From: an uncultured delta proteobacterium
GTDB lineage: Bacteria; Desulfobacterota; Binatia; JACPRU01
Direction: 5' to 3'
Assembly (NCBI GenBank): GCA_963745025.1
Contig: CAVUWD010000004.1
Location: forward strand, 1-37,122
DNA: 37,122 nt
The translations under genes and the position numbers were made by a program. Positions 14 to 17,669 of the stretch are shown here, one piece after another. Below the pieces are notes generated by a model. That model was given only the letters and a program-made list of their open reading frames with translations, did not search any database and was not told where the DNA came from. Positions within the stretch are counted from its first letter, which is position 1; each line of letters starts with the position of its first letter.

Positions 14-97
14 CCGTAGAAACGGGGCGTCTCGTGTTTGGGCAGCGTCGGATATTGAGGCTTTACGTCAACTCGGCCGCCTATCCCGGCTATCCTC
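14..97 (+). repeat. 84-bp junction element, copy 1
   Basis: CCGTAGAAACGGGGCGTCTCGTGTTTGGGCAGCGTCGGATATTGAGGCTTTACGTCAACTCGGCCGCCTATCCCGGCTATCCTC; near-identical copies at 4557, 7268 (half), 13318, 15900 and 17587. Confidence 0.97.
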
Positions 98-781
98 TCG
101 AATCGTTTCGTGGGTTTGGCTCAAGATTCACGCGCTCCGGCCGTCGTTGGTCGGAGGGTGCCGCCCGCTGGAGTTACTGGACGTTCTCCCGGAGAAGACG
201 TGGAAAGTGCGCCATCGAGCCCGCCTCACTCCATTTGGAGTTCCGCTCGAAGCGGTGGTCGCGGAACGACTGCCGAGCGGTGCGTATTGACTGATGTCGG
301 AGGGCGCAGAGCAGCGTCGAATTATCGCAAGAGTCGAGAGCCCATGGTCGTCGCGGAGGAGTGAACCGATGGACTGCATGGTCGTCGGCGTTGTGTGTTT
401 CGCGCTCGGCTTCGCGGTCGTGTTTCGCTGGGGCGATTAGGACGCCGCCGCGCTCGACGCCGCCCGGAGTCGGGGCACGGTCTGCCGGCGCTCGCCGCTA
501 CCGTGACCTCGGGAAGCGAATCGAGCACGGCTTGCTTTCGCTGTACATGGATCCGAACGACGCGCGCGAGCGTGGGCGAGCCTATCCTCGCCAGCGCGGT
601 CGGTCACGTCTGGCGGAGTGATCGAGCGCGCCGCGAGCAGGACACGGCAGGATCAGGAATCCCCTCTTTGACGAGACCAAACAAAGGGGTAGCAGCGAGG
701 CACTCAGCGAAACGCGCTCAAGGCCGCGTTGACGAGCCACCGAACCAAGCCCATTATTCCATCGTGCCCCGCGTCGTGTTC

Positions 782-1288
782 ATGGGCGTGTTGGCGACGA
801 TGCTCGCCCTGTCCGCCCCTACGCAAGCGGCCATCTTCGCGTGGCGCGACACGGAAGGCGTCACCCACTTCGTGGACAACCTCGGTAATGTGCCTAGCGA
901 GTATCGCGAGAGTGTCGTTACATTCGTGAACGATTGGAAACGGCCGGCGCCAGCGGAAAGTGTGTCGCCTGCGCCGGCACCCGACCCGCCTGTGGTGCCG
1001 AGCGTGGTGATTATCGAGGCCGGCCCTACGAGCTTCGAGCGGGGTTTTTGGGAAGGGCTCCAGAGCGCGATGGCAGCGCAGCCGGCGCCGGTGGGCGTGT
1101 CGGTCGGCTCGATCGTCCAGAACGTACAAATCATTACACCACCACAGCTCGCCACAATGTTGCCCTTGTTCGGACCCGTCTTCCCCGTTCGCATGCGCCA
1201 GCATCGGAGGCACGTTTTCGCCCCGAGGTTTCGGGGTCGGTTCATCCACGGCCCGGCAGGTCCACCGCCGGGCGTTTTCTTTAGATGA
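782..1288 (+). CDS. DUF4124-like secreted protein with Pro-rich linker
   Basis: Signal-peptide-like N-terminus, then AIFAWRDTEGVTHFVDN (xYxWxDxxGxxHFxD-type motif); start codon uncertain. Confidence 0.65.
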   Translation: MGVLATMLALSAPTQAAIFAWRDTEGVTHFVDNLGNVPSEYRESVVTFVNDWKRPAPAESVSPAPAPDPPVVPSVVIIEAGPTSFERGFWEGLQSAMAAQPAPVGVSVGSIVQNVQIITPPQLATMLPLFGPVFPVRMRQHRRHVFAPRFRGRFIHGPAGPPPGVFFR

Positions 1289-1343
1289 ACTCGCATTCGA
1301 ACCCATTTGAGGGTCGCCAGTCGTAGACAAGGGAGGGTAAACC

Positions 1344-2099
1344 ATGAAGATCGTCGTCATCGGCGGCACCGGCCTGATCGGCTCGAAGACCGTCGCCATT
1401 CTGCGCCAGGGCGGCCACGAGGTCGTCGCCGCCTCGCCCAATACCGGCGTCAACAGCATCACCGGCGAGGGCCTCAAAGAGGCCATGGCCGGCACGCAGG
1501 TGGTGATCGACCTCGCCAATTCGCCCTCATTTGAAGACAGGGCGGTGCTGGAATTCTTCGAGACCTCCGGCCGCAACCTTCTCGCGGCGGAGGCCGCAGC
1601 CGGCGTCCGGCACCATGTCGCGCTATCCATCGTCGGAACCGACCGGACGCCCGACAATGGCTATTTCCGCGCCAAGGTCGCCCAAGAGAAACTGATCGAG
1701 GCCTCCGGCATCCCCTACACCATCATCCGCTCGACCCAGTTCCTGGAATTCCTCGGCGCCATCGCCGATTCAAGTGCGCATGGAAACGTGGTCAGGCTTT
1801 CGCCCGGCCTGTTCCAGCCCATCGCGGCGGACGACGTTGCTGCCATCGTCGCCGATGTGGCACTCGCGGCGCCGCGAAGCGGCATCGTCGAGATCGCCGG
1901 CCCGGAACGAGCACCGTTCAACGAAATCGTCGCCCGCTATCTGAAGGCGGTCGGCGACCCGCGTGAGGTCGTGCGTGACCCCGAGGCCCGATACTGGGGC
2001 GGCCGGGTCGAGGAGCACTCGCTCGTGCCGTTGGGCGAGGCGCGCCTCGGCCGCATCGGTTTCGACGAATGGCTCCGCCGCTCACAGGCAAGAGCCTGA
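1344..2099 (+). CDS. NmrA/atypical SDR family NAD(P)-binding oxidoreductase
   Basis: MKIVVIGGTGLIG Rossmann motif, YFRAK, RBS GGAGG upstream, 251 aa intact. Confidence 0.9.
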   Translation: MKIVVIGGTGLIGSKTVAILRQGGHEVVAASPNTGVNSITGEGLKEAMAGTQVVIDLANSPSFEDRAVLEFFETSGRNLLAAEAAAGVRHHVALSIVGTDRTPDNGYFRAKVAQEKLIEASGIPYTIIRSTQFLEFLGAIADSSAHGNVVRLSPGLFQPIAADDVAAIVADVALAAPRSGIVEIAGPERAPFNEIVARYLKAVGDPREVVRDPEARYWGGRVEEHSLVPLGEARLGRIGFDEWLRRSQARA

Positions 2100-2242
2100 T
2101 CCTGCATCCGAGGTACCAGGACTCACCCGCTGGCCGAGCGGCTGAGGTCTCGGCACGCGCACATCAGACTGATCGCACGGGCGACTCGATCGACAGGACA
2201 ACGAAAACTCGTTGCGCTTCGTTCTTCCTAGCGGCACTCCTG

Positions 2243-2608
2243 ATGCTCGCAGCCGTCCCGGCCGAAGCCGCAGACGTGAAGGAACTGTTCGCGATCGATC
2301 TCGCGGACTACCCGGGCAAGGAGGGTCGCATGATTGAGGTGTCGTATCCGCCGGGCGCACAAGACGTGGTCCATCGGCACGACGCCCATGCGTTCGTCTA
2401 CGTGCTCGAAGGCCAGATCGTCATGCAGTTGAAAGGCAAACCTGCCGTCACGCTCAAGGCAGGGCAGACGTTCTACGAGGGTCCTACCGATGTTCACGTC
2501 GTGGGGCGCAACGCCAGCAACACGGAGCCGGCCAGGTTCGTCGTGGTGCTGCTGAAGGCCAAGGGGGCTCCCATCCTCACGCCGGTGAACGAAGACTCGG
2601 ACAAATGA
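2243..2608 (+). CDS. Cupin domain protein
   Basis: HRHDAHAFVYVLEG...FYEGPTDVH cupin motifs; the signal peptide probably begins slightly upstream. Confidence 0.85.
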   Translation: MLAAVPAEAADVKELFAIDLADYPGKEGRMIEVSYPPGAQDVVHRHDAHAFVYVLEGQIVMQLKGKPAVTLKAGQTFYEGPTDVHVVGRNASNTEPARFVVVLLKAKGAPILTPVNEDSDK

Positions 2609-2669
2609 CGCTCGACGCCTTGGCTGTCGTAGGGCAATCGAAGGGCGAAGCGGCCGCGGAGGGCATTCC

Positions 2670-3065
2670 ATGGGGGACGATCTCGCCGAAGCTAACGTCA
2701 ATCGCTCGTATTCGCTCGCCGCGACGAGCATCGCGATCTTCACGTTCATACTGTTCTTTCTGTATCCGAGGTTCGAGAGCGGCGAGATCAACGCCTTACT
2801 GTTTCAAGCCACGTTAGTCGTGATGGGTGTGGCGACGTTCTCATTCGTGTTCGCGTCCTTCCACTACTACTGCTCCTCGCTTGGCAGCCCGATCGATGAT
2901 GCCGAGCGGGCTCTGTACTCCCAGCGAGCCGATCGCTTCTGGCTGCTCGGTTACACCCTGCTGTTCCTCGGTCCGAGCCTGATCCTCTTCTCGATTGGGC
3001 TTCTTGCCGTCGGCTCTGCGTGGTTCGCACTCTGGCTGGTGTACTTACTCTTCGTGATCCGCTGA
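2670..3065 (+). CDS. Small multi-pass membrane protein (C-terminus possibly frameshifted)
   Basis: GGAGG RBS and four hydrophobic segments. Confidence 0.6.
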   Translation: MGDDLAEANVNRSYSLAATSIAIFTFILFFLYPRFESGEINALLFQATLVVMGVATFSFVFASFHYYCSSLGSPIDDAERALYSQRADRFWLLGYTLLFLGPSLILFSIGLLAVGSAWFALWLVYLLFVIR

Positions 3066-3436
3066 CTTCCCCAGGATCCAGACCGCGCGGAAAGAGCTCT
3101 ACTCCGGTCCAACATTCAGCTGAGAACCCAACGTGTGGTTACTGTGCACCCGCCGAGCAGACCAGACCCTCCGAGCGGAGCAACGCACGAACCGCGGCAC
3201 CTTCAATCACTGCCACCCTGGGGTCTGCGCACGCCGTGGTAGTCAGCGGACGCGAGACACGCCGCGATGCGATGCCCGTCTTGCCACCGAGAATCGAGTG
3301 GCCCAGCGAGCGAATGCATTGGAACAAGGGAACATACAAAGCTCGTTAGTTTGCACGGTCCATCGAGCCACCGGCCGGTCCAATGCCTCGATGCAGCATT
3401 TGATGGGCAGCGGCAGCACAACGTCGCCGGGTCCGG

Positions 3437-3555
3437 CCACGCATGCGTTCCGAGGACGACCGCTGGTCGTCCCAATCTGCGCCGTGTTCGAGATCCGAGA
3501 CGGACGCATCGCCGCCTGGCGCGAGTATTTCGATCCGGCACTCTTCGCACGATGA
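3437..3555 (+). pseudogene. C-terminal fragment of a limonene-epoxide-hydrolase/SnoaL-like (NTF2 fold) protein
   Basis: VVPICAVFEIRDGRIAAWREYFD; no matching N-terminus. Confidence 0.65.
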
Positions 3556-3590
3556 TAGGCGTTGGAGTCGTATCCGCCTCAGGAGATTGC

Positions 3591-4508
3591 GTGCATCACC
3601 CTCATCCAATCCTGGTGACCGGCGCGGCGGGCAAGGTCGGAGCGATCGGCCCAGCCGTCACCAGGGCCCTGCTCGACCGGGGATTTAAAGTAAGAGCCAT
3701 GGTGAGGCGCGAGGACGAGCGCTCCAACGCGTTGCGCAGTCTGGGAGCCGATGTCGTCGTCGGCAACCTGCTCGATCTGTACGATGCGCACCGCGTGCTC
3801 GAGGGCTGCCGGCGGGTGTATTTCAGCATGTCGGTCGACTCGACCTATCTGGAAGCGACGACCAACATGGCCGTGGTGTGCAAGCACCACGGCGTCGATG
3901 CGTTCGTGAACATGTCGCAGATGACGGTCTCGCAGATGGACATCCACGCAACGACGGACAGCCCCCAGCACAAGCAGCATTGGCTCGCCGAGCAGGTGCT
4001 GAGGTGGAGCGGCCTTCCGGTGGTGTACATGCGACCAACGGCGTTCATGGACGTGTTTTTCCTGCAGGTTTGCGCCCCGACGATCAGGCGCAACGCGGCG
4101 ATCATGGTGCCGTTCGGATCGGGCAAGACCTCGCCGATTGCGGCGCTCGATGTCGCGCGATGCGTCGCGACGGTTCTCGCGGACCCCGCGCCGCACATCG
4201 GCAGGATCTACGAGCTGACCGGACCGAGCTCCAACACTCTGGCGCAGATCGCTGAACAGTATTCGGACGCGCTCGGCCGGAAGATCTCGTACGTGGACGT
4301 TCCTGTCGCGCCCTGGGAAGACGCGCTGCGGCAGTCTGGAATGTCGCCCCACGTCGCCGCGCATCTCATCACGATGGCCGCTTTGCACCGACAGAACCGC
4401 TACGACCGCCTGACCCGTGATGTCGAGAAGCTGACCGGCTCACCTCCGATGTCGATCACCGACTTCGTGCGCATGCACGCCGCAGAGTTCGCGCCGCAAG
4501 GAAGTTGA
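3591..4508 (+). CDS. NmrA family NAD(P)-binding protein
   Basis: ILVTGAAGKVG; AGGAG RBS before GTG at 3591; typical LRPT and YELTGP-like motifs. Confidence 0.88.
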   Translation: MHHPHPILVTGAAGKVGAIGPAVTRALLDRGFKVRAMVRREDERSNALRSLGADVVVGNLLDLYDAHRVLEGCRRVYFSMSVDSTYLEATTNMAVVCKHHGVDAFVNMSQMTVSQMDIHATTDSPQHKQHWLAEQVLRWSGLPVVYMRPTAFMDVFFLQVCAPTIRRNAAIMVPFGSGKTSPIAALDVARCVATVLADPAPHIGRIYELTGPSSNTLAQIAEQYSDALGRKISYVDVPVAPWEDALRQSGMSPHVAAHLITMAALHRQNRYDRLTRDVEKLTGSPPMSITDFVRMHAAEFAPQGS

Positions 4509-4510
4509 GC

Positions 4511-4556
4511 ATGGCAGGACGCTACCTCGAGGAGTTCGCGCCGGGGCAGAAGTTCG
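4511..4556 (+). pseudogene. N-terminal fragment of a MaoC-like dehydratase, cut by the 84-bp element
   Basis: MAGRYLEEFAPGQKF matches the MaoC N-terminal YxEDFxxGQxF pattern. Confidence 0.6.
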
Positions 4557-4637
4557 CCGTAGAAACGGGGCGTCTCGTGTTTGGGCAGCGTCGGATATTG
4601 AGGCTTTACAACTCGGCCGCTTATCCCAGCTGTCCTC
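4557..4637 (+). repeat. 84-bp junction element, copy 2 (81 bp, 3-bp deletion)
   Basis: Direct alignment to copy 1; lacks GTC after CTTTAC and ends TGTCCTC. Confidence 0.97.
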
Positions 4638-4706
4638 CTGCGCCCGCTGCCGGCCGTGAAGGTGAAGGGCCGGATCGCCGAGGTGGAGGTCTACGCCCTC
4701 GTCTGA
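4638..4706 (+). pseudogene. C-terminal tail of a class III adenylate/guanylate cyclase
   Basis: LRPLPAVKVKGRIAEVEVYALV* (VKG...V.VY motif). Confidence 0.6.
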
Positions 4707-4882
4707 GTCGCAACGACGGCCCATTCGAGTCGCGAAACTTCACGTTAGTGTCTAAGGGTGAATCTCGTTGGCTTGCCAGCCGGCTGGTGACCTTACTACT
4801 GATCAACCACCCTTGAAGCGCAGCGCACCAAGGGTCTATTCGAGAGCATCAGCTCTCGGCCTCGGCCCTCGGCCCAAGAATC

Positions 4883-5112
4883 ATGCGCTGCCCATCCTGC
4901 GGTTTCGAAAACGCGAGTGGCATAAAGTTCTGCGGCGAGTGCGGGGCACTGCTGAAGGTCAAGTGCTCGAGCTGCGGGTTCGCAACGCTCCGGGGATCAA
5001 GTTCTGCGGCGAGTGCGGGAAACCGCTCGCTGAGGTCGCGAAGCCAGGAGCGCCACCGGACCACCGCTCCTATACGCCGAAACACCTCGCCGAGAAGATC
5101 CTGACTTCGCGC
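4883..5112 (+). pseudogene. N-terminal fragment of a double-zinc-ribbon adenylate/guanylate cyclase
   Basis: MRCPSCGFENASGIKFCGECG, then a frameshift, then YTPKHLAEKILTSR and an abrupt end. Confidence 0.8.
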
Positions 5113-5245
5113 GATGTCCTCCGGAGCTCGCCGGGGACGAGAACGGTCGCGAGTGGCCCCACGGAAGTGGCACGGTGGAAAGGAGATCTCGAGCAACGTC
5201 GCCAGGGATCGGCCCGACGGCTCGGTGACACGCGGAACGTTCTCG

Positions 5246-6976
5246 CTACGCTGACGGGATCCCGAGGATCTTGTCGATGTTCTGGAGGAGCGTCGCGTCT
5301 CCGCGCGAGATGCGTTTGGCGTTCATCTCGACGACCAGCATCTGACGCTCGACGTACGCCTTCGCGAGCGGATTCTTCTCCGCCGATAGGCTCGCCTGCT
5401 GCAGGAACTCAACCGAGACGACGACGTCGATCACCATGTCGCAGAGCCGTTTGGCGTGAAGCAGCGCGTAGCTCGGGTCGCCCATCAGCGCCGGAAGCGA
5501 CTGGTTGATCCACTCGATCCCCTGCGCGACCTGTGCAACGAGGTCGGGGTAGCTGCCCTTGAGCCCTTCGAGCTCGGCGCGGAGCTGATCGAGGATCGCG
5601 AAGAGCGCCCCCTTGCTCATCTCCTTAAGCGCGAAGCTCGCCTGGATCTCGGACGTGCCCTCGTAGATCGTCGTGATGATCGAGTCCGAGTGATAGTGGC
5701 CGGCCGGCGTTTCCGACATGTAACCGATGCCGCCGTGGATCTGGATGCCGGCGCGTGTGACTTGGTTCGAGATCTCGGTGCCGAAGTACTTGCAAAGCGG
5801 CGTCAGGAACCGGGTGAGCTGCGTGTTGCGCTCGACCTCTTCCCGGAGCGAAGCGTTCTCGGGATCCTTCGCGCCGCGCTCCGTCTGGAGGTAGAGGCGC
5901 ATCGCCTCCGTGAGATCCATCATCGCGCACGTTCGGTAGAGCAGCGCGCGCGCCGCCTGGATGCTCGCCAGCATGATCGCGAGCATCGCCTTGACGGGCG
6001 GCTGATGGAGGATCGGCGCGCCGAACTGCACGCGGTCGGCGGCGTAGCCGCGCGCCTGCTGGTACGCGGCCTCGGCGATGCCAATGCCTTGCGCCGCAAC
6101 GCCGAGCCGCGCGCCGTTCATGAGATCGAGCATGGCGCGGAAACCTTGCCCTTGGGTGCCGAGAAGAAAACCCTCGGCGCGATCGAACTCGACCACGCAG
6201 GTCGGCGAGCCGTGGATGCCGAGCTTCTTCTCGGTGCGGAGGACCCGGACACGGTTCTGGCGGCCGTCCGGCAGCGTCACCGGGCAGAGGATCAGCGAGA
6301 GGCCGTTCGTCGTGCCCTTCGACTGGTCGAAGGTCTCGGCATCGCGCGCGAGAACGAGATGGATCGGCGCGCCGCCGTTCGTGATGAAGATCTTCTCGCC
6401 TTCGACGATCCACCGATCGCCTTCGAGCGTTGCGCGTGTGCGAATCGCGCCGAGGTCCGATCCCGCCTGCGGCTCGGTCAGGTCCATCGCTCCCTGGAGC
6501 TCGCCGGCGGCGAAGCGCGGCAGGTAGCGCTCGCGGATCTCGTCGGTCCCGTACTTCTGAATGTCGTGCGACACGCCGCCCTGTAGGCCGACGATCGTCA
6601 TCAGGCTCGCGTCGGCGCGTGCGACCATTTCGAGATAGGCCGAGTTGAGCAGCACCGGGAGACCTTGGCCGCCGTACTTGGGATCTAGCGTGAGACAGAC
6701 GAGCCCCGACTCGGCGAGCTTCCGATAGCCTTCGGCGATGTGCGGCGGGACCACGACCTTGCCGCCCCGGAGCTCGGCCGCTTCGTGCCAGTGCTCCTTC
6801 GAGCCCGCCTCGATGTCCTGACAGATCTCGCCGAGTGTCCGGAGGATCATCTTGTAGGTCTCGATCTCTCCCGCGACGTCGGCGGCGTCGGGGTTCCGGT
6901 AGTGGAAGTACCGCTTCCAGTCGACGCGATGATCGACGAAGAGCTCCATGTCGGGATTGAAGAAGTCGCTGGCCAT
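5246..6976 (-). CDS. Acyl-CoA dehydrogenase family protein
   Basis: MDLTEPQAGSDL, GEKIFIT, KLGIHGSPT, QIHGGIGY, IYEGTSEIQ; GAGGAGG RBS before ATG at 6976. Confidence 0.95.
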   Translation of the reverse strand: MASDFFNPDMELFVDHRVDWKRYFHYRNPDAADVAGEIETYKMILRTLGEICQDIEAGSKEHWHEAAELRGGKVVVPPHIAEGYRKLAESGLVCLTLDPKYGGQGLPVLLNSAYLEMVARADASLMTIVGLQGGVSHDIQKYGTDEIRERYLPRFAAGELQGAMDLTEPQAGSDLGAIRTRATLEGDRWIVEGEKIFITNGGAPIHLVLARDAETFDQSKGTTNGLSLILCPVTLPDGRQNRVRVLRTEKKLGIHGSPTCVVEFDRAEGFLLGTQGQGFRAMLDLMNGARLGVAAQGIGIAEAAYQQARGYAADRVQFGAPILHQPPVKAMLAIMLASIQAARALLYRTCAMMDLTEAMRLYLQTERGAKDPENASLREEVERNTQLTRFLTPLCKYFGTEISNQVTRAGIQIHGGIGYMSETPAGHYHSDSIITTIYEGTSEIQASFALKEMSKGALFAILDQLRAELEGLKGSYPDLVAQVAQGIEWINQSLPALMGDPSYALLHAKRLCDMVIDVVVSVEFLQQASLSAEKNPLAKAYVERQMLVVEMNAKRISRGDATLLQNIDKILGIPSA

Positions 6977-7027
6977 GGGACCCTCCTCGCGCTTGGATCT
7001 CATAGCATGATGCGTCACCTGTGGCGA

Positions 7028-7195
7028 GTGCGCATCGGCATCGACCTCGGCGGCACCAAGATCGAAGGCATCATTCTCGCTGACGACGGCCGCGAGATCG
7101 CGCGACGCCGTGTCGCCACGCCTCGCGGTGACTACGACGCGACGCTACGTGCCGTCGCCGAGCTCGTGGCGAAGCTCGAGCGCGGCGACGCGTGA
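7028..7195 (+). pseudogene. Truncated ROK family sugar kinase (about 55 codons)
   Basis: RIGIDLGGTKIE ATP-binding motif; far shorter than a ROK protein. Confidence 0.75.
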
Positions 7196-7267
7196 CCGAC
7201 CGGCGGCGAGCGTTAGCTCAGCCGTTCACGCGCGGCAAGGCACCGAGAGCGCCATGGACGGCCGCCA

Positions 7268-7309
7268 TGAGGCTTTACGTCAACTCCGCCGCTTATCCCA
7301 GCTATCCTC
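7268..7309 (+). repeat. 3' half (42 bp) of the 84-bp junction element, copy 3
   Basis: TGAGGCTTTACGTCAACTCCGCCGCTTATCCCAGCTATCCTC, with the same right end as the other copies. Confidence 0.93.
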
Positions 7310-7561
7310 CGGCGGTTCGGTCCCGCCGGACGTGTCGGTGCAAGCGCGTCGCTGCTTCGAGATCATCGAGCGCGCGCTCGCGCGGATCGACGACGTGGTT
7401 CGCACCCGCATGTTCCTCGTGGACGCCGCGGACGCCGACGCGGTGGGACGTGTCCACGGCAAGGTATTTGGGCCGCGCGTCCTGCGGCAACGATGGTGGT
7501 CGTGCACGGTCTCCTCGATCCGCGCTGGCGCGTGGAAGTGGAAGCGGAGGCCGAGATCTGA
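7310..7561 (+). pseudogene. C-terminal part of a RidA/YjgF family protein, frameshifted
   Basis: QARRCFEIIERAL...DVVRTRMFLVD...PAATMVVVHGLLDPRWRVEVEAEA. Confidence 0.8.
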
Positions 7562-7652
7562 GCGCCGTAAACCAGGCGGCGACGACTCCGGCTCGGCCGC
7601 GCTCGACGACATTTCCGAGCGCCGGAAGCAGCTTCGGCGACAGCGCTTGATT

Positions 7653-7682
7653 TTGACCGCCGCCCCCGCCCGGCGATACGCT
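7653..7682 (+). promoter_or_regulatory. Possible sigma70 promoter upstream of the cassette-like ORF
   Basis: TTGACC-18 nt-TACGCT. Confidence 0.35.
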
Positions 7683-8712: not shown

Positions 8713-8714
8713 CG

Positions 8715-9972: not shown

Positions 9973-12909
9973 GTGAGCGATTTTTTCCGCCTCGAGGCTC
10001 GCGTGCGCGAGATCGCGCACGATCTGCAGCGTCGAGCGGCCGGGCGGAGGCCGGCGATCTTCGAGCCACGCGACTGGCTCCGGCGGATGATCGAACAGTC
10101 GCTCGAAGACGAGCAGGTGCGAACGGCTCTGTTCCGCTTCGTCGACGTCTTACCGAGCCTCCGCGGGGCGCGCGACGTCGGCGCACACCTCGAGCAGTAC
10201 TTCGCAACCGTCGATCACGCGCTCGCAGGGCTGACGCTGCTCGCGCATACGCTGCATGCAGGCTGGTTGGTGGCGCCGATCGTTCGCAAGAACGTCAGGT
10301 CGCTCGCGCGGCGGTTCATCGCCGAGGAAGATCCCGAGACGTTGCAGCACGTGCTCGCGCACCTCCGTGAGGAGCCGGCGGCCTTCACGCTCGACGTCGT
10401 CGGAGAGGCGACGCTCAGCCAGGCCGAAGCGCTGCGCATGCTCGGACGCTACGAGGCGCTGCTCGCCGAGCTCTCCGCGGTGGCGGCGCGCTGGCCCGCG
10501 GATCCGCGTGTCGACCACGACGATCGCGGCCCGATTCCGCGTGTGAACGTGTCGGTGAAACTGTCGTCGCTCTACGCGCGGTTCGACCCGCTCGACGCGG
10601 AGACCGAGCGCGTCGCCGGCAAGCGCTTACGCCGATTGCTTCGTCAGGCGGCGCACGTCGGGGCCGCGATCACCGTCGACATGGAGCAGCACGCGTTCAA
10701 GGAGACCACGCTCGCGATCTTTCGCGCCGTGCTCGAAGAAGACGAGTTCCGCGCCGCGCCGGTGGTCGCCATCGCCCTGCAGGCATATCTGCGCGAGACC
10801 GCAACCGATCTCGACGCGCTTCTCGATTGGGCGCGGTCGCGAGGGCGGCGGATCGGCGTCCGGCTCGTCAAGGGCGCGTACTGGGACAGCGAGGTCGTCT
10901 GGGCGAGGCAGCGAGAATGGCCCGCGCCGGTCTATACCGACAAGGGCGAAACGGACCTGGCCTACGAGCGCCTGTCCCGCCGGCTGCTCGAGAGCCACGA
11001 CGCCGTCGACGCGGCGTTCGGCAGCCACAACCTGCGAAGCCTCGCACACGCGATTGCCTGTGCGCGTGCGCTCGGTCTCGCTTCCGGCGCGTACGAGATC
11101 CAGATGCTCCACGGAATGGCCGAGCCGCTGCGGCAGGCCCTCGTCGAGAGCGGCGAGCGCGTGCGCGTCTACCTGCCGGTCGGCGAGCTGATTCCGGGAA
11201 TCGCTTATCTGATCCGCCGCTTGCTCGAGAACACCTCGAACGTCTCCTTTCTCCGCGAGAGCTATGCCGAGGAGAAGGATCTCGAGCGGCTGATCGCGCC
11301 GCCGGCGCCGGCGCGCGATGCGGGCCCGGCGGCGACGACCGCTGGCTTCCGCAACGAGCCGCCGCGCGACTTCTGCCGCGAAACGGTCCGCGAGCGGTTC
11401 GGCGCCGCGCTCGACGCGGCTCACGCATCGGCCCGAGATCTGCGCCCGCTACACATCGGCACGGAAGAGGTTTTCGCGGAAGGGATTCTCGAATCGCGGA
11501 ATCCAGCCGACCTACGAGAAGTTGTCGGCCGCGTGCCGATCGCCGACAGAGCCATCGTGAATCAGGCGGCCGCCGCGGCACGAGAGACGCTCGCGGGGTG
11601 GAGCCGCGCGCCGATCGCGGATCGCGTCGCGGTGCTCTTGGCAGCCGCCGACGAGATGCGACGCCGTCGTGACGAGCTCGCGGCACGCATCGTTCTCGAA
11701 GTGGGCAAGGGATGGCGCGACGCCGATCACGAAGTCTGCGAGGCAATCGACTACCTCGAGTACTACGGCTCGCAGATGCGCGAGATCGGGGCGCGGCGAG
11801 CCACCCAGTCCTTACCCGGCGAGACGAACGAGGTTTGCTACGAGCCGCTCGGCGTCGTCGCCGTGATCTCACCGTGGAACTTCCCGCTGGCGATCACGAC
11901 GGGAATGGCCTCGGCGGCGCTCGTCGCGGGAAACACGGTGGTAGTCAAGCCTGCGGAGCAGTCACCGATCATCGGCGGGGAGTTGCACGCGATCCTGGTT
12001 CGCGCCGGCCTTCCGGCGGGAGCGATGAACCTCGTGCAGGGCGGCGGCGATGTCGGCGCTGCGCTCGTTCATCACGACGACGTCCGTGCGGTCGCGTTCA
12101 CCGGGTCGCGCGCCGTCGGGCTCGAGATCCTCCGTTTCGTCGCCGCCGTGTCGACGCGCGACGGATCTCTGAAGCGGGCCGTCTGCGAAATGGGGGGGAA
12201 GAACGCGATCGTCGTCGACGACGACGCCGATCAGGATGAAGCGCTGGCGGCCATCCTCGAATCGGCGTTCGGCTATCAGGGCCAGAAGTGCTCGGCGGCG
12301 TCTCGGCTGATCGTGGTAGGCGAAGACCCCCCGCTCGCGCGGCGGCTGGTCGAGGCGACGCGTACATTGCGGATCGGTCCCCCGGAAGACCCGCGAAACG
12401 CCGTCGGGCCCCTCATCGATGCCGAAGCCCGCGACCGCGTGCTCGCCGCGGTCGCACGCGCCGAGCGCGACGGCACGCTGCTGCTTGGCTCGGAGGGCCG
12501 CCCGACCAGCGAAGACGGCTACTTCGTGCCGCCGGCGATCGTCGCCGATCTCGACCGTCTCCACCCACTCGCGCAGGAGGAGATCTTCGGTCCGCTTCTC
12601 TGCGTGTTCACGGTGCCCGGCTTCGAAGAAGCGATCGCGCTCGCCAACGACACGCCCTACGGCTTGACGGGCGGCGTATTCTCGCGCTCGCCCGCTCATC
12701 TCGAGTATGCCCGGCGCGAATTTCGGGTCGGCAATCTCTATCTCAATCGAGGCGTTACCGGTGCCGTCGTCGGACGCCAGCCGTTCGGTGGTCTCAAGCT
12801 CTCAGGGGTGGGCTGGAAGGCAGGGGGGCAGGATTACCTGAAACAGTTCCTCGAATCGAGAACGGTGGCCGAAAACACGCTACGGCACGGATTTGCGCCG
12901 GAGACATGA
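9973..12909 (+). CDS. putA: Bifunctional proline dehydrogenase / L-glutamate-gamma-semialdehyde (P5C) dehydrogenase
   Basis: PRODH motifs VRLVKGAYWD, SHNLRS, YLIRRLLEN; ALDH motifs ISPWNFP, FTGS, EMGGKN, GQKCSA, EEIFGP; 978 aa. Confidence 0.96.
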   Translation: MSDFFRLEARVREIAHDLQRRAAGRRPAIFEPRDWLRRMIEQSLEDEQVRTALFRFVDVLPSLRGARDVGAHLEQYFATVDHALAGLTLLAHTLHAGWLVAPIVRKNVRSLARRFIAEEDPETLQHVLAHLREEPAAFTLDVVGEATLSQAEALRMLGRYEALLAELSAVAARWPADPRVDHDDRGPIPRVNVSVKLSSLYARFDPLDAETERVAGKRLRRLLRQAAHVGAAITVDMEQHAFKETTLAIFRAVLEEDEFRAAPVVAIALQAYLRETATDLDALLDWARSRGRRIGVRLVKGAYWDSEVVWARQREWPAPVYTDKGETDLAYERLSRRLLESHDAVDAAFGSHNLRSLAHAIACARALGLASGAYEIQMLHGMAEPLRQALVESGERVRVYLPVGELIPGIAYLIRRLLENTSNVSFLRESYAEEKDLERLIAPPAPARDAGPAATTAGFRNEPPRDFCRETVRERFGAALDAAHASARDLRPLHIGTEEVFAEGILESRNPADLREVVGRVPIADRAIVNQAAAAARETLAGWSRAPIADRVAVLLAAADEMRRRRDELAARIVLEVGKGWRDADHEVCEAIDYLEYYGSQMREIGARRATQSLPGETNEVCYEPLGVVAVISPWNFPLAITTGMASAALVAGNTVVVKPAEQSPIIGGELHAILVRAGLPAGAMNLVQGGGDVGAALVHHDDVRAVAFTGSRAVGLEILRFVAAVSTRDGSLKRAVCEMGGKNAIVVDDDADQDEALAAILESAFGYQGQKCSAASRLIVVGEDPPLARRLVEATRTLRIGPPEDPRNAVGPLIDAEARDRVLAAVARAERDGTLLLGSEGRPTSEDGYFVPPAIVADLDRLHPLAQEEIFGPLLCVFTVPGFEEAIALANDTPYGLTGGVFSRSPAHLEYARREFRVGNLYLNRGVTGAVVGRQPFGGLKLSGVGWKAGGQDYLKQFLESRTVAENTLRHGFAPET

Positions 12910-12974
12910 CCTCGGCTTTGGTTCTCACACCTGGAGCTGGAACGTGAGGTTCGTCTTAGCGATAATTGTGAAGC

Positions 12975-13231
12975 TTACGCGCGGCGTGCAGCGTGACGGA
13001 TGTGGCGCCCGTCGTGGATTCGTAGAGCAGCGGTCAGAGTCTGGAAGAGCGCTGGATCGTATTGCTCCCACGCTCTGGGTCCGATAGGTAAGCGGTCTTT
13101 CCTCCATCGGATCGCCCGTCGTCCGGTGTGAGCATCCAGCACACGCCGAGCCGAAAACCGGCGGCGGAGAAGCAGCGAAGCAACCCGTACCTCAAGTAAT
13201 CGTTGATGTCGCCGAAGTACTGGTTCTTCAC
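12975..13231 (-). pseudogene. N-terminal fragment of a conserved hypothetical protein (MKNQYFGDINDY...), frameshifted
   Basis: MKNQYFGDINDY...GVCWMLTPDDG continues in another frame (WEQYDPALF), then ends. Confidence 0.5.
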
Positions 13232-13317
13232 TTCGCGCTCGATTTCGGCGATCGCCCGGAACCCGGCGGCGGTGACTAACGGGCTCTCGTCGCTGTAGCC
13301 GCCCCCTGGGAGGGCGA

Positions 13318-13401
13318 CCGTAAAAACGGGGGGTCTCGTGTTTGGGCAGCGTCGGATATTGAGGCTTTACTTCAACTCCGCCGCTTATCCCAGCTATCCT
13401 C
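13318..13401 (+). repeat. 84-bp junction element, copy 4
   Basis: Aligns end to end; variants CCGTAAAAAC, GGGGGGTC and CTTTACTTC. Confidence 0.96.
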
Positions 13402-13497
13402 CGAAGAAAATTCTCGCTGTGGCGCCAACTGGACGTTGATGCTCTTGTTCGCCTCGGATGAGGAGAGGAAGTACTAGCGGCGACATAAGGCCCATCC

Positions 13498-13679
13498 CTA
13501 CGTCCCCAGCTTCGAGATGATACGGCCGATCGCGTAGCCTGCGGCCACGACGAAGGCCAGAGAGAGTAGAGGGTGCTCGTCGACGAAGGTCTGAATCCGC
13601 CGCTCCACAGCGGTCGGCTCGTTCGATCCCGCGTGGGGCTGCGCCGCGACCTTGCGCCGATCCTCGTTTCTTCACTCAT
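13498..13679 (-). CDS. ElaB/YqjD (DUF883)-like small membrane-anchored protein, one apparent indel
   Basis: IQTFVDEHPLLSLAFVVAAGYAIGRIISK* tail; ATG at 13679 is one base out of frame at an A-run. Confidence 0.5.
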
Positions 13680-13902
13680 CGCGATGCTTTTCTGCGAGCC
13701 GAGCGCTCGCTCCGCGGCGAAGAGCGAGGAACAGTCCGACCGTGAAGCCGCCGTAGAGGTATATCCAGCGCCCGGTCTCGAGCACACAGTTCGCCTGACT
13801 CTGAGCGGCTGCCGCGAGCTCCCCGACAGCATCCTTGAGCTCCTCGGCGCTGCTTGCGGCAGCCTCGCGAAGCCGCTCCTTCTCTTCCTCGACCACGCTC
13901 AC
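13672..13902 (-). CDS. Small hypothetical protein (helical N-terminus, C-terminal TM segment)
   Basis: EEEKERLREAAASSAEELKDAVGEL...LYGGFTVGLFLAL; overlaps the start of the next gene. Confidence 0.45.
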   Translation of the reverse strand: MSVVEEEKERLREAAASSAEELKDAVGELAAAAQSQANCVLETGRWIYLYGGFTVGLFLALRRGASARLAEKHRDE

Positions 13903-14018
13903 CGTTCGCCCTTTTCCGGTTGCGCTCGGCCCGGTTCCTTGCGTTTCGGCGACTGGTCTTCGCACCAATCCTTCGCGGCCTGGACACCGGTTGCGTGTGG
14001 GGAGGCTCGCCCCACCGC

Positions 14019-14047
14019 CCTTTAGTGGATAACACGTGTGTTGTCAA
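14019..14047 (-). promoter_or_regulatory. Candidate sigma70 promoter
   Basis: TTGACA-17 nt-TAAAGG on the minus strand in an AT-richer intergenic gap. Confidence 0.45.
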
Positions 14048-14172
14048 GCCAGCCCAGCATGATTTAGTGACTACAGCAAGGACCCAAATATCTCACTCCC
14101 ACAGGCACAAACACCAATAACCACCGCGACTTTCAGACCACCTTCACACTGGCAGAGCGCGGGAACTTCCGG

Positions 14173-15252
14173 CTAGAAGACGATCTTCGCTTCGAGGCCG
14201 AGGAACGCGGCGTACCGCTCGGCGGCCGAGGTGATCCGGTCTCGATCGGCGGGCGCCGGCTTGGCGAACAGCGCGAGCTCGATCGTCACGCCGGCCCGCC
14301 CGAGGGTGCGGCGCCAGGTTCCGACGACCCGACCGTCGACGACGACGCAGGGGGCGAGCATTCCGCCGCCGGCGTTGAGCCGATGGGCGTCTCGCGCGGC
14401 CAGCATGGCGGTGCGGTCCTTGTAAGCGACCAGATACTCGTCGAACGCCGGCAACAGGAACGCGCCGGCCGGCGCCGGGCCGCGTGTGCGCCCAGTCTCG
14501 CGGGCGCGCCAGTAGACCGCTCCGTCGAACTCGTCGGAAGCGAGCTCCGCTTCGACGGCCGCGAGGCCGGCCCGCGCGTCGGCCGGCCTCAACCCGGACC
14601 ACCAGGCGAAGTCGGCGGCGGTGGCGGGGCCCCGGCTGCGGAAGTACCGGCGCGCCAGCTCGGCCAGCGCCTCGTCCCGCGACAACGGCGCGCGCGTCGG
14701 CGGCGCCCGGTGGGCGAGCAGCGCCCAGGTCGCCTGCTTGCCGCGCGGCGCGCCGCTGCAGATGAGGGCGTGCAGCTCGGCGTGGCCGAGCAGGTGGGAC
14801 AGGCGCGGTCCGTCGACGGCGATGCCGGCCCCGCGAAGCGCCGCCCCGAGCTCGCCGCGCGTCAGGTGCGCGCCGCCGCGCAGGGCCCGCTCGATCGCCG
14901 TGTGGCTGCGCCGGAACGTGGCGGCGTCGAGGGCGAGCTCCCGATGACGCCTCGCCGCCCGGGTCACCAGGCGCGGCGCCACCAGCGGCAGCATCCAGTG
15001 CAGGTCGGCGGGCGTGACGAGCTGCCACGTCCACCGCATCACGTGGGTGCGAAGGATGTCCCCTTCGGCGAGGGCCCGGGTGATGGTCGCCTCGACCGCG
15101 CGCCCGCCGAGGCGAAGCCCCACCGCCCAGCGCGCGCCGGCCGCGTCCTGCGCCTGCATCGCGCCCATCCGGCTGACCAACTCGGCGGGATCGGTGAGCT
15201 CGGGCCGGGCGATCTGCTGCGCGGCCAGGCGCCTCGCGACGAGGATCGCCAA
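14173..15252 (-). CDS. Winged-helix HTH_42 (AlkZ/YcaQ-like) DNA glycosylase family protein
   Basis: MQAQD (QxQ motif), ILRTHVMRWTWQLV, GPATAADFAWWSGL, LLPAFDEYLVAY. Confidence 0.88.
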   Translation of the reverse strand: MAILVARRLAAQQIARPELTDPAELVSRMGAMQAQDAAGARWAVGLRLGGRAVEATITRALAEGDILRTHVMRWTWQLVTPADLHWMLPLVAPRLVTRAARRHRELALDAATFRRSHTAIERALRGGAHLTRGELGAALRGAGIAVDGPRLSHLLGHAELHALICSGAPRGKQATWALLAHRAPPTRAPLSRDEALAELARRYFRSRGPATAADFAWWSGLRPADARAGLAAVEAELASDEFDGAVYWRARETGRTRGPAPAGAFLLPAFDEYLVAYKDRTAMLAARDAHRLNAGGGMLAPCVVVDGRVVGTWRRTLGRAGVTIELALFAKPAPADRDRITSAAERYAAFLGLEAKIVF

Positions 15253-15256
15253 GGCC

Positions 15257-15899
15257 CTAGCTCCCGGTCGCGCCCTTCGCGATCTCCGTCGCGAACAGGC
15301 GGGCGAGGGCGTAGACGGAGATCTGGGGGTTGACGCCGAGGGCGGTCGGGAAGACCGAGCCGTCGGCGATCCAGAGGTTGTCGATGTCGTGGTGACGGCC
15401 GCGCGCGTCCACGACCGAGCGGCGCGGGTCGCTGCCCATCGGGCAGCCGCCCATCTGGTGGGCGGAGAACATCGTGTGCTGGTTGGGGCCGAAGGGGGCG
15501 TCGGCGATGTGGGCGATGTCGGCCTCGCTGCGGATGACGAGCGGCGTCTCGTGCAGGGTCATCACCTCGCGCGCGCCGGCGGCGAGCTGGAGGCGGGCCA
15601 TGTTGGCGAGGGCGTCCTTGGCCGCCTCGTGCAGGGAGGCATGGAGCGGGTAGCGGAGGCGGACGCGGCCGTCGCCGTTGACCGCCACCTCGCCCCCTTC
15701 GTCGTCGTGGTGGCCGTCGACGAGCAGGGCGATCGTGGCCTGCACGTAGGGGAGGCGCTCGGCCAGCTTGCGGTGGCTGTCGCCGAAGCCCGGGAAGGCG
15801 AGGGTGCCCAGCATCGGGTGGGTCGCGGAGGCCTCGAAGAAATAGCCGACCCGCTCGCCCCGATCCGCGAAGTGATGGACAGCCACCGACTGGGGGGCG
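15257..15899 (-). pseudogene. C-terminal third of a GMC family oxidoreductase, cut by the 84-bp element
   Basis: FSAHQMGGC, NLWIADGSVFPTALGVNPQ; the FAD-binding N-terminus is absent. Confidence 0.85.
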
Positions 15900-15983
15900 C
15901 CGTAGAAACGGGGCGTCTCGTGTTTGGGCAGCGTCGGATATTGAGCCTTTACGTCAACTCCGCCGCTTATCCCAGCTATCCTC
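15900..15983 (+). repeat. 84-bp junction element, copy 5
   Basis: Aligns end to end; variant TTGAGCC. Confidence 0.97.
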
Positions 15984-16313
15984 AGATTTACCTTCTCGTG
16001 CCACTTTCCAAGGACCGCGACAACATTTTTGGAGCCGGGGCGGAAGCGGCGTGATTCGTGGAGGCCCTCAGTTTGCCAGGAAAGGCAAAGTGTGAATTGG
16101 GCAGGCTAACTTGCCGGCGAAAACCCAGAGCAGTACCGCCCTAAATTGCTCGGCTTGCTTGCGGACGAGATCAAGAAGACGCGTGAAGCGCTAGCACCAC
16201 ATGGAAGTGTTAAGGTGGAGGGCCTTGAAGGTTCAGTCTTGGTGCGGCAAGCGGATGAACGAAACGTCGAGTTGTTCTTGCGTTACACACTCTCGATCAC
16301 GATGGAAAAATGA
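15984..16313 (+). pseudogene. 3' part of a lower-GC cassette-like hypothetical ORF
   Basis: Frame ending EQYRPKLLGLLADEIKK...LRYTLSITMEK* just before the attC site. Confidence 0.45.
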
Positions 16314-16345
16314 GCGGCTCAGGAAGCTATGCAGCGAGACATCAT

Positions 16346-16438
16346 GCTGAACAAGCCGGATGCAGCGAACCCCGCAATGGTGTCTCAGTTCCATGCCGGA
16401 CCTCCGTGGCGCGGGGCCGCTGATCCGGGACGTTCGGC
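16346..16438 (+). other. attC recombination site
   Basis: R'' GCTGAAC and R' GTTCGGC; CCGGATGCAGCG pairs with CGCTGATCCGG leaving one extrahelical G; CCCCGC/GCGGGG stem; 93 bp. Confidence 0.8.
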
Positions 16439-16447
16439 GGTGAACCC

Positions 16448-16699
16448 ATGAGACGGTGTCTGCCTGGGCCGCAGCCGGAGCATCGTGTTGGCGCCCTCCT
16501 CGCGGCCGTCTGCTTCGCTGCGACGAGCCTGTGCTCGGGTTGCAAGTTCGATTCGATCTCTACTCCTCCCGTGCCGGCGTCTTGTTCTGCGATCGGTGCG
16601 CAGTGTCAGCGGCCGGAAGGTCCGCTCGGTGTCTGCCAGGAAACGCGCTGCGCCCCTGGCTCACAGGCGCCCTGCTTCACATGCACGTCACAGCACTAG
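16448..16699 (+). CDS. Small Cys-rich putative lipoprotein
   Basis: Lipobox-like CSGC; SCSAIGAQCQRPEGPLGVCQETRC...CFTCTSQH. Confidence 0.55.
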   Translation: MRRCLPGPQPEHRVGALLAAVCFAATSLCSGCKFDSISTPPVPASCSAIGAQCQRPEGPLGVCQETRCAPGSQAPCFTCTSQH

Positions 16700-16707
16700 T
16701 GACCTCG

Positions 16708-16989
16708 ATGGCCTTGGTGGACCCGGAGACATTCGACGACAAAGACGTGGCGATCATCTATATCGCCGGTCGCCTGGCTGAGGGGAAGCGGGTCGAGCGG
16801 GTCTTTTCGGACAACGCCATCGACTATACCGTCGACATCGAACCGTTTCAGAAACACGTGCTCGGCATCCTTCCCATAGAATACGAAGGCGTCGGGTTCT
16901 ACGTCCTCGCCGGTCAGGCGGAATTCTGCCGTCGTCTGCTGCGCGACGCGGGCATAGTTCAGGGCCTGGTGGAGGAGGATGTTGTCTGA
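16708..16989 (+). CDS. Hypothetical protein (DUF2007-like size and pattern)
   Basis: Protein-like 93-aa frame MALVDPETFDDKDVAIIYIA...VGFYV. Confidence 0.55.
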   Translation: MALVDPETFDDKDVAIIYIAGRLAEGKRVERVFSDNAIDYTVDIEPFQKHVLGILPIEYEGVGFYVLAGQAEFCRRLLRDAGIVQGLVEEDVV

Positions 16990-17014
16990 GCTGGCGTTGC
17001 TTTCAATTCAGGAG

Positions 17015-17586
17015 TCAGTCCACACACAGCTCGGCGGCCGTTCCTGACTCCCCGAACGTGCAGAAGCAACCGAAGAGCGGACTTACCCGGCGCAGGTCCC
17101 TCGAACCGCCCCGCCACACTCCGCGGGTATCACTCCCTCTGCGACGCAGAAACCGCGGCAATCCTCGGGGGCGGAGCATGGACAGCCATCCTCCCGGTTG
17201 CACATGTACAGAACGGCACCGTTGAGAGTTCGCCTCTCCCCCAGCTTCCTCCTAGCCCGACGCAGGCGGCTTCGCTGCTCGCCTGCCGACACCCACTGAA
17301 ACGTTCTACAACGGCCGCGTTGCCGCACGGTTCGATGGTTTCGATGCGATAGCGCAACGCGAAGGCGCCGTCTGTGCGGGCGCAGCTCTCGCCACTTGGG
17401 CAGTCGGTATCAATCACGCACAGGCGGTCGGTGGTCACCGAGCAGTTGCCCCCGTCTCCACCAATCGCTGGCGTCTCGTACTCCATCAACCCACTCCCAG
17501 ACCCGAAGTCCGGGCTGGCGTAGGTGACGTTCACTTCGCCCGCGTTGTGGTGCGTGCCAGCGAGACAGTTCACGCCGTCGGCAAAG
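17015..17586 (-). pseudogene. C-terminal fragment of a Cys-rich secreted protein, cut by the element and frameshifted
   Basis: CSVTTDRLCVIDTDCPSGESC and further Cys clusters spread across two frames. Confidence 0.55.
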
Positions 17587-17669
17587 CCGTAGAAACGGGG
17601 CGTCTCGTGTTTGGGCAGCGTCGGATATTGAGGCTTTACGTCAGTCGGCCGCTTATCCCAGCTATCCTC
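17587..17669 (+). repeat. 84-bp junction element, copy 6 (83 bp)
   Basis: Aligns end to end; TCAGTCGG in place of TCAACTCGG. Confidence 0.96.

Follow-up and report, generated by a model that had tools for sequence, protein, structure and literature searches.

What joins the unrelated pieces of DNA that lie side by side in contig C4 of an uncultured delta proteobacterium (GenBank CAVUWD010000004.1; its entire 37,122 nucleotides are here called the window), and does the 84-bp element that recurs between positions 14 and 17,669 take part in the joining? The contig belongs to a genome bin of 5.65 Mb in 20 contigs, rated 92.65% complete and 7.6% contaminated. An earlier note on this DNA had listed five full copies of the element and, in addition, its 3' half, all on the plus strand, and had read them as joints of unrelated DNA resembling recombination sites. 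Our inventory of the window, made with a repeat finder and by alignment, returned the same copies at the same coordinates and on the same strand, and the linkage of element variants to their flanks, together with the exchange of those flanks between copies, upheld the reading of the joints. The explanation that we favour, tentatively and somewhat short of thinking it probable, is a unidirectional recombination site of an attC-like but non-integron kind, which is restricted to one lineage and resides in variable islands linked to tRNA genes.

Copies of the element in the window

The full copies occupy, on the plus strand, 14–97 (copy 1), 4557–4637 (copy 2), 13318–13401 (copy 4), 15900–15983 (copy 5, used as reference) and 17587–17669 (copy 6), and the half copy 3, at 7268–7309 on the same strand, comprises element positions 43–84. 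All five full copies begin with CCGTA and all six copies end with TCCTC, as had been pointed out from the window, and the C/G polymorphism that divides them is also present (CTCGGCC in copies 1, 2 and 6; CTCCGCC in copies 3, 4 and 5). The contig begins 13 bases upstream of copy 1, and bases 5–13 (TTATGCGCC) complete the first hairpin of that copy, with a stem of 10–17 and 22–29. Copy 2 has a 3-nt deletion at the mid-site, a variable stretch that lies at 15952–15959 in copy 5, and has A replaced by G at position 79; the mid-site allele of copy 6 is 1 nt shorter (CGTCAG-TC). Copy 4 is located ~400 bp past the stop codon of putA. Successive copies are spaced 4543, 2711, 6050, 2582 and 1687 bp apart, three of the five distances being under 4 kb.

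One-sided linkage between element and flanks

We compared copies that have one flank in common and differ in the other. In both independent pairs with a common left flank, the differences between the elements are limited to position 78 or to positions 80–84, whereas in all eight pairs with a common right flank the differences fall at positions 1, 3, 11, 41, 43, 50, 53–59, 63, 67, 76 and 78, and never beyond. Because the differences are confined according to the flank that is shared, the element up to about position 78 would travel with the left flank, and the exchange point would lie within GCTA^TCCTC. These comparisons show that positions 1 to ~78 are inherited with the DNA on the left, and that TCCTC plus two to three further bases go with the DNA on the right; in copy 5, the exchange point probably falls between 15978 and 15979 (GCTA^TCCTC). 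For example, a contig from public sequencing run X1 carries the right flank of copy 5 together with the other mid-site allele, and two loci outside the genome, L029 and L044, share a left flank and a rare mid-site allele and differ, by eye, at positions 80 and 83. The same left flank was met with three right contexts (C17:11269, L029/L038 and L044), and one right flank, the end of a cyclase domain, with five left flanks. This one-sidedness had not been visible to the author of the earlier note. A site-specific reaction is preferred as its cause, because ordinary homologous exchange needs more than six bases and because a random crossover would land anywhere in the 84 bp.

Distribution and natural origin

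A blastn search of the whole assembly with copy 5 returned 34 matches, mostly in co-oriented clusters, the copies being 93–100% identical, and a profile built from the full copies gave 41 matches at E < 1e-3 and 56 at E up to 1. Besides single copies, the genome contains six multi-copy clusters: the one in the window (C4, 14–17,669, six plus), C17 at 11–63 kb (eight plus), C16 at 826–853 kb (five minus and one plus), C6 at 480–523 kb (four minus), C11 at 244–247 kb (two minus) and C8 at 143–145 kb (two minus). As many as 27 of the 28 clustered copies follow the orientation of their own cluster, with a probability of ~5e-6 under random orientation in six clusters, and the co-orientation seen in the window is thus beyond chance. 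Diverged subfamilies of the element exist at ~80% identity.

Among 41 genomes searched, the element was found in four, namely the source genome and three relatives, which represent two genera of one family (seven matches in G001, of the same genus; three in G006 and one in G002, of the second genus), and the other 37 genomes of this sample gave no match. A 20-letter pattern matched 5 of 201 genomes of the class, the same four plus G063, a member of another family with one diverged copy. Scanning of species genomes yielded six stretches, five of them in records of metagenome-assembled genomes (MAGs) named 'uncultured delta proteobacterium' and one a chance match, and scanning of metagenome contigs yielded 18, three of which were chance matches. 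After removal of the four chance matches, the outside collection amounts to 24 true copies at 20 loci, with both borders as in the window. The joint between the element and the block with the cyclase-domain end, as it follows copy 2, recurs in three outside contigs at 98% identity. The right border of copy 4 is crossed by a 151-nt contig of run X2 and that of copy 5 by contigs of runs X1 and X3; these contigs extend 57–66 bases into the element and none covers a whole copy, while the left border of copy 6 is reached by 29 bases only (threshold 31). Shares in public runs were 0.24 or less, and no conclusion on habitat was drawn from them.

Could the joints be made by the assembler, jumping between loci through a high-copy repeat, or could the element be an adapter or spike-in? 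The window is a whole 37-kb contig that starts 13 bases before a copy, contig C3 starts within a copy and has 483 bases in common with the window before it diverges, contamination of the bin is rated 7.6%, and a whole copy is spanned by none of the public-run records compared, all of which fits a chimera. Set against these points, clusters lie deep within contigs of 0.6–1.1 Mb, identical element–flank joints occur in independent assemblies and in contigs from other public runs, subfamilies have diverged to ~80% identity, and among the 201 class genomes the matches are limited to four of one family and one of another. Because three relatives and ~20 independent metagenome contigs carry the element with the same ends, it is neither an adapter nor an artefact of a single assembly; the chimera explanation is largely refuted, and we regard it as very improbable. 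The element is, as far as these comparisons reach, a natural repeat limited to a few related uncultured bacteria, in agreement with the view that it forms a naturally diverging family and not a linker. A full-text literature search with a 21-base string of the element, and Rfam, the only two sources consulted on this point, gave no prior description.

Flanking DNA and insertion

In the window, the element abuts pieces of different genes. Directly after copy 1 lies a block resembling the 3' end of a methyltransferase gene (99–276, plus strand; 84% identical to C17:38484–38661). Copy 2 cuts the start of a MaoC-like gene (4512–4556, plus strand), of which the first 15 codons (MAGRYLEEFAPGQKF) are left; the MaoC N-terminus reported there stands as this reading by eye, which is too short for Pfam. 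A contig of run X4 departs from the window at 4558 and may represent an intact MaoC allele. On the other side of copy 2, a block at 4638–4767 (plus strand) codes for the terminal part of a cyclase catalytic domain and then a stop codon (..LRPLPAVKVKGRIAEVEVYALV*). The 'cyclase tail' described earlier thus does derive from a cyclase, but from its catalytic domain and not from the C-terminal end of the long protein. Downstream of four further copies, whose left flanks differ, this block is found again. The left partner of half copy 3 (7172–7267) is 92% like C11:634156–634251, with no homology at the break, and to its right a RidA-like fragment (7311–7478, plus strand; profile positions 34–93 of 121) begins directly after the copy, as proposed, with a score of 23 bits that is below the Pfam cut-off of 27.3. 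The C-terminal fragment of a glucose–methanol–choline (GMC) oxidoreductase next to copy 5 was clearly identified (15257–15886, minus strand; PF05199, E = 8e-25); it has no N domain, its 5' part being missing at the copy, and it sits with an AlkZ-like gene (14173–15252) in a high-GC block (0.71–0.73) for which no counterpart was found in seven related genomes. For the gene cut by copy 6, called Cys-rich in the earlier note, there is no Pfam match, and the 401-bp block that follows this copy (17670–18070, plus strand) is identical to C3:84–483, beyond which the contigs diverge.

Other gene pieces at the borders include a cyclase domain cut at GKIG, a cyclase piece that starts at ..EKIL and half of an IS256-type transposase. 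Three left flanks end a few codons past a gene start: the MaoC-like one in the window and two in G001, where a gene starting MNSK.. is cut after four codons (its intact form is at C6:501922) and where the other flank consists of a ribosome-binding site plus ATGATATG. A search for reciprocal products found the remainder of neither the MaoC-like nor the GMC gene next to any copy. Half copies were considered as attL/attR pairs and rejected, as they are unpaired within clusters.

A set of 45 full copies with both flanks, from the genome and from outside loci, was used for tests of insertion. No target duplication above 3 nt was present in any of them, the longest flank repeat being 3 nt, and no terminal inverted repeat was reported by the repeat finder at the element ends, in line with the absence of both features noted in the window. 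The search for an empty-site allele gave none: the flanks of the 45 copies are nowhere contiguous in the genome or in the retrieved loci. Neither the 34 genome copies nor the 45-copy set displays a conserved target motif at the borders; C, G, A and T all occur before CCGTAG in both sets and, by eye, G is rare after TCCTC. The element is not a simple cut-and-paste insert.

It might still be a non-autonomous mobile element without inverted ends or duplications, akin to palindrome-associated transposable elements (PATEs) or to IS91, that is mobilised in trans by a transposase of the HUH or another type and inserts strand-specifically, with later deletions and recombination between copies having made the flanks unrelated. 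The absence of inverted ends and duplications agrees with such an element, as do the ends, which are sharp in most of the ~34–41 copies, the identity of 93–100%, and a left-end hairpin accompanied by a palindrome close to the right end. A full copy at C17:36924, placed at the mid-site of a diverged copy, fits insertion into its own kind, and copy orientation and the sign of local GC skew go together in 8 of 11 clusters, to which we gave no weight, the agreement being limited to these eight and the skews tiny. This explanation has difficulty with the absence of empty sites and contiguous flanks among the 45 copies, with a left end that is fuzzy and has no conserved adjoining target bases, with a genome in which the element is within 2 kb of none of the two Y1 genes and one Y2 fragment and in which no reverse transcriptase was found, and with the linkage data, as random later recombination would not yield one-sidedness. 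We consider it rather unlikely.

Anatomy of the element

The 5' part of the element is a short hairpin (CCGT-AGAA-ACGG), which in seven copies and in the diverged copies is extended to 8 bp by an upstream TGCGCC. It is followed by the run TCTCGTGTT, by a long imperfect palindrome (TGGGcAGCGtCGGAtaTTGA [GGCTTTACG] TCAAcTCCGcCGCTtatCCCA) and by the 3' end, GCTATCCTC, after which CG or TC mostly comes. The mid-site at positions 53–60 is hypervariable, with indels of 1–3 nt (CGTCAACTC, CGTCAG-TC, ---CAACTC and CGTCA-CTC). Diverged copies, at ~80% identity, retain CCGTA.AAACGG, G.C.GATAT.G, TTACGTCAAC, GGCCGCTT.TCC and GCTATCCTC. With small indels and most of the truncations, the mid-site may be a second fragile point besides the exchange point.

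Three readings of the element were discarded. The element is open in several frames, with likeness at the peptide level between main and diverged copies; a coding role was rejected because the mid-site alleles that differ by 1 nt disrupt every frame. Identity with a known RNA was rejected as well: no copy had a match in Rfam (window search at E up to 1, with five matches in the window, all elsewhere), and ARAGORN found no tRNA in five related loci. Finally, a stem GGATA/TATCC at the exchange point was dropped, as GGAGAT, GGACAT, CAGATA and GCTAACC break it, by eye, without compensation.

The same anatomy invites a passive explanation, in which a hairpin and palindrome resembling a terminator once lay downstream of a gene, spread with the duplication of cyclase clusters and now do no more than attract illegitimate and homologous recombination, being fragile or offering short homology, without a dedicated enzyme. 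The first hairpin followed by TCTCGTGTTT has the look of a terminator, and seven copies have the same 9–10 upstream bases (CTTATGCGCC), three of them sharing a longer stretch that in two cases comes from a truncated cyclase gene and a second hairpin. Within 500 bp of the element, cyclase pieces are present in ~10 of 34 flanks on the right and 3 of 34 on the left; of eight truncation points, five lie at positions 42–56, close to the palindrome apex; the left border is fuzzy, and the islands are mosaic even where the element is absent. Two half copies break at the identical base (42|43), to which we gave no weight because the chance of such a coincidence is ~28% given eight break points. Left unexplained by a passive module are the dozens of unrelated flanks that meet the same two borders on both sides and in two genera, as well as the co-orientation of 27 of 28 copies, and exchange within the last six bases is too short for the RecA type. 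On balance, we judge this explanation unlikely.

Several side observations concern individual borders. A second MaoC-like start is cut by an element copy in G063 (L079, G063:C67, 1364–1738, minus strand); MaoC-like starts thus make up 2 of ~46 distinct left flanks, cut at different codons in genomes of two families. The left flank of the full copy C17:36924 is a diverged element (C17:36855–36923; compare C19:37068, C11:240177 and C3:9466) cut at its mid-site (..GTTATGACAA|CCGTAG..), and looks like a case of a copy placed into a copy. A cyclase fragment at ~683900–684000 of G001:C1 (L058), 93% identical to that at C16:1103500–1103620, is cut 30 bases further in G001 and is preceded there by an inverted degenerate piece of the first hairpin in place of a full copy. 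At C6:522250–522590, on the strand opposite to the element, reading by eye suggests an excisionase-like helix-turn-helix open reading frame (ORF) followed by the start of a phage-type integrase, ~70 first residues of which end at the right border of a copy. Pieces of tRNA genes are found as well: a tRNA-Ala-like 3' half fused to a half element copy in L010 (G006:C3, ~1500–1570), a T-arm-like piece at the element's right border in L009 (G001:C22), and 26 bases of tRNA-Leu(taa), which reach from the anticodon loop to the variable arm and adjoin a diverged copy on its left (C16:843790–843815).

Islands next to tRNA genes

At five places, C4, C6, C11, C16 (825 kb) and C16 (1103 kb), the element lies 3' of a tRNA gene and points against it. 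The tRNAs concerned are Glu/Gln in the window, Arg(tcg) on C6, Val(cac) on C11, and Leu(gag) and Leu(taa) on C16. In the window, tRNA-Glu(ctc) and tRNA-Gln(ctg) are encoded at 29170–29355 on the minus strand, with the array on their 3' side in the opposite direction, and an integrase fragment is present at 29522–29665 (minus strand); integrase genes or fragments are found near the tRNA-linked clusters. Over 4 kb of core DNA and the tRNA-Leu(gag) gene, one outside contig matches this genome at 98% identity; at the site of the C16 cluster, that contig has different DNA with two elements.

The islands are rich in proteins of ~1150 aa with a (double) zinc ribbon, a cyclase domain, a STAND ATPase domain and repeats. 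The motif P[KR]HL..[KR]I occurs in 28 ORFs, about ten of them full length, many in head-to-tail tandem and many broken or internally duplicated; in the window, members of this cyclase–STAND family are at 4768–5508, 18064–18600 and 28025–28954, and 28693–28859, for example, repeats an earlier part of the same gene. The cyclase pieces at 18064–18496 (plus strand), a C-terminal tail (aa 1128–1183 of a 1185-aa paralogue) followed by a zinc-ribbon N-terminus, are fused without an element to a short-chain dehydrogenase/reductase (SDR) gene at 18465–19523. In outside contig L029 (3592–4558), the same SDR gene, 94% identical, starts ~80 bp past an element, so that only one of the two strains has the element at this block border.

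Overall, the islands are mosaics of 0.1–2-kb blocks, and most block borders are free of the element. Blocks shared with relatives (an acyl-CoA dehydrogenase in G001, 96%; an NmrA-like gene in G006, 93%) are not bounded by it either, the nearest element being 6–9 kb away in both genomes. The element is hence one stitch among several: the idea of a stitch holds in that it joins unrelated DNA, and does not hold for the mosaic as a whole.

Two further features of the window are recorded here. The 154-bp block 14022–14175, which borders the AlkZ-like/GMC block, is 100% identical to C12:73959–74112, located ~85 bp outside an IS110-type element with four near-identical copies. At 34253–34368, there is an inverted repeat with 52-nt arms, 73% complementary and 12 nt apart, composed of short tandem words, where Rfam gave only a chance-level microRNA match.

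Candidate enzymes

No cognate enzyme is encoded in the window, as had been stated. Of the neighbours that the earlier note had thought of, IS110 elements occupy five loci in the genome, none adjoining a copy, and HUH transposases are represented by two Y1 genes and one Y2 fragment, far from all copies; within ~2 kb of the two Y1_Tnp loci, only 13-nt chance matches to the element were found. No reverse transcriptase was found in the genome, which is rated 92.65% complete. None of 17 genome matches reaches the cut-off of 265 bits for the integron integrase profile TIGR02249, the best scoring 73.9. An ORF beside the diverged copy at C16:843.9 kb was at one point taken for an integrase end and was withdrawn, having no match in Pfam or NCBIfam.

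A weak candidate is a 191-aa tyrosine recombinase that consists of the catalytic domain only (PF00589, E = 4e-33). Its best NCBIfam match is of the XerA type (positions 92–261 of 263, below the cut-off), and it matches the TIGR02249 profile at 97–180 and 237–313 only, skipping the part specific to IntI. The gene is the last in a module of four ORFs, after a short ORF, a DnaN-like gene (TIGR00663, E = 8.5e-44, with an N-terminal extension) and an ORF of no assigned function. The module is present at C17:42762–45674 and C11:266473–263542, 94.7% identical over 2.9 kb with the homology beginning mid-ORF, and in diverged form at C6:498250–500893. Eight of 11 recombinase copies or fragments are within 20 kb of an element, and two recombinase genes are followed, after ~0.5 and 1.1 kb, by diverged elements. 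Furthermore, close relatives of the recombinase (≥55% identity) occur in all four element-bearing genomes of the family and in none of four element-free ones. We take the 191-aa recombinase as no more than a lead to the cognate enzyme.

Comparison with known systems

The nearest resemblance is to integrons. The boxes of attC sites have the consensus RYYYAAC/GTTRRRY, and integron crossover takes place near the 3' end of attC, with the site staying with the upstream cassette. Exchange in the element would likewise occur near the 3' end, the site being kept with the upstream piece, in the small sample of pairs available here. According to the passages of Cury et al. 2016 (PMC4889954) that deal with IntegronFinder, attC sites and clusters of attC sites lacking integron-integrases (CALINs) are called from two or more same-strand sites less than 4 kb apart, and the folded site has R and L boxes, an unpaired central spacer and extrahelical bases. 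As described in the same passages (PMC4889954), such sites are short (~60–140 bp), form co-oriented arrays with unrelated DNA between them, lack inverted ends and duplications, resemble each other within one host and often have no integrase nearby, all of which is reminiscent of the element. The copies do lie on one strand, but just three of the five window spacings are below 4 kb. Reading of the copies revealed no R or L box motifs at the ends, no hairpin of the attC kind is supported, and, unlike in integrons, an IntI with the extra domain of ~35 residues near patch III was not found, 0 of 17 matches exceeding the TIGR02249 cut-off. The pieces between elements also differ from integron cassettes: they measure 0.5–10 kb, are mosaic, carry genes on both strands and truncated genes, and are not conserved units. 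The geometry is attC-like, but sequence, fold and enzyme differ from those of an integron.

Bertels and Rainey (2011, PMC3116915) are reported to have described repetitive extragenic palindromic (REP) elements and their paired form (REPINs) as being moved by REP-associated tyrosine transposases (RAYTs). The element resembles these in being a short, high-copy, non-coding and lineage-restricted repeat with hairpin potential and no internal transposase; a GTAG motif is typical of REPs, and GTAG is found at the 5' end of the first hairpin. Unlike REPINs, it is a single 84-bp unit and not two inverted REPs; unlike REPs, it also lies inside broken genes, several copies abut truncated coding sequence, the clusters are spaced on a kilobase scale in a single direction, and it does not flank either Y1 transposase gene.

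PATEs derived from IS200/IS605 and one-ended capture by IS91 or by insertion sequence common regions (ISCRs) are marked by the absence of inverted ends and duplications, hairpins near the ends, strand bias and one constant end. With these the element shares the lack of inverted ends and duplications, the near-end hairpins, the strand bias and the variable neighbouring DNA; in contrast to the IS200/IS605 type, it lacks a fixed tetra- or pentanucleotide before the insertion, no linked transposase was found and both borders are fixed in most copies. Miniature inverted-repeat transposable elements (MITEs) differ by their terminal inverted repeats and target site duplications: the element has no inverted repeat at its ends, and the longest flank repeat in 45 copies is 3 nt. 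The REP/RAYT, IS200/IS605-type and MITE models each fail a tested feature. Integrative islands accrete in tandem at tRNA genes, and the arrays 3' of tRNA genes, the integrase fragments nearby and the direct repeats separating unrelated DNA are similar to this; unlike a tRNA att site, however, the element is not the 3' part of a tRNA (ARAGORN, Rfam), and five different tRNA genes are involved.

Proposed mechanism

In the mechanism that would account for these observations, pieces of DNA, circular or linear and each with one site, would be joined to a resident site at GCTA^TCCTC by a site-specific recombinase, possibly of the 191-aa family with only a catalytic domain, which shares the element's distribution across genera. 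Each event would add one co-directional site, and the outcome would be co-oriented arrays in tRNA-linked islands full of cyclase–STAND paralogues and gene fragments.

A number of results weigh against such a recombination site. The pairs that reveal linkage are few, two sharing the left and eight the right flank, and the latter are drawn from eight copies in three right-flank groups. Window spacings are large (1.7–6.1 kb), the left border is imprecise by 0–6 nt inside TGCGCC, and the central palindrome is lost in diverged copies. Folding of four strands gave energies no better than those of shuffled sequence (z-scores –0.6 to –1.5), RNAalifold returned no consensus structure for 54 distinct copies on either strand, and variants in a model of the folded site are, by eye, without mutual compensation. 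No conservation as units is seen for the DNA pieces that elements separate, the blocks in common with the relatives are not element-bounded, and the genes on both strands and truncated genes that the pieces carry are unlike integron cassettes. As for the enzyme, the co-occurrence with the recombinase compares two genera with three, all of them kin; arrays have no adjoining enzyme gene at a fixed position; the module ends are not element-like; no element was met in the 16 kb retrieved around the full recombinase copies of G001:C27 and G006:C7; and G063 has a diverged element, but its recombinases are only 38% identical, the same as in control genomes.

A more specific version of the favoured recombination site, which we hold to be improbable, is a complete non-integron cassette-array system, with an 84-bp site, a crossover fixed close to its 3' end and a small tyrosine recombinase without core-binding domain, that captures and strings together arbitrary DNA, gene pieces among it, beside tRNA genes in islands with fast-evolving cyclase–STAND genes. 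The near-fixed left border on many unrelated sequences, often just past a gene start, might then show how cassettes originate.

Biological significance

To our knowledge, the step that makes cassettes is not known for integrons, and the cassette-array reading, if true, might reveal how they arise. If the exchange is driven by an enzyme, the element would represent a second, independent route to gene arrays by site-specific recombination, in uncultured bacteria of soil and sediment, and would account for the reshuffling of variable islands with their dozens of cyclase–STAND paralogues and fragments. If it is merely a mobile or fragile repeat, it would still mark the borders of rearrangements and call for caution in the binning and assembly of these genomes. 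Since it behaves like a one-sided recombination site, the element is a candidate for a new way of stringing pieces of DNA together.

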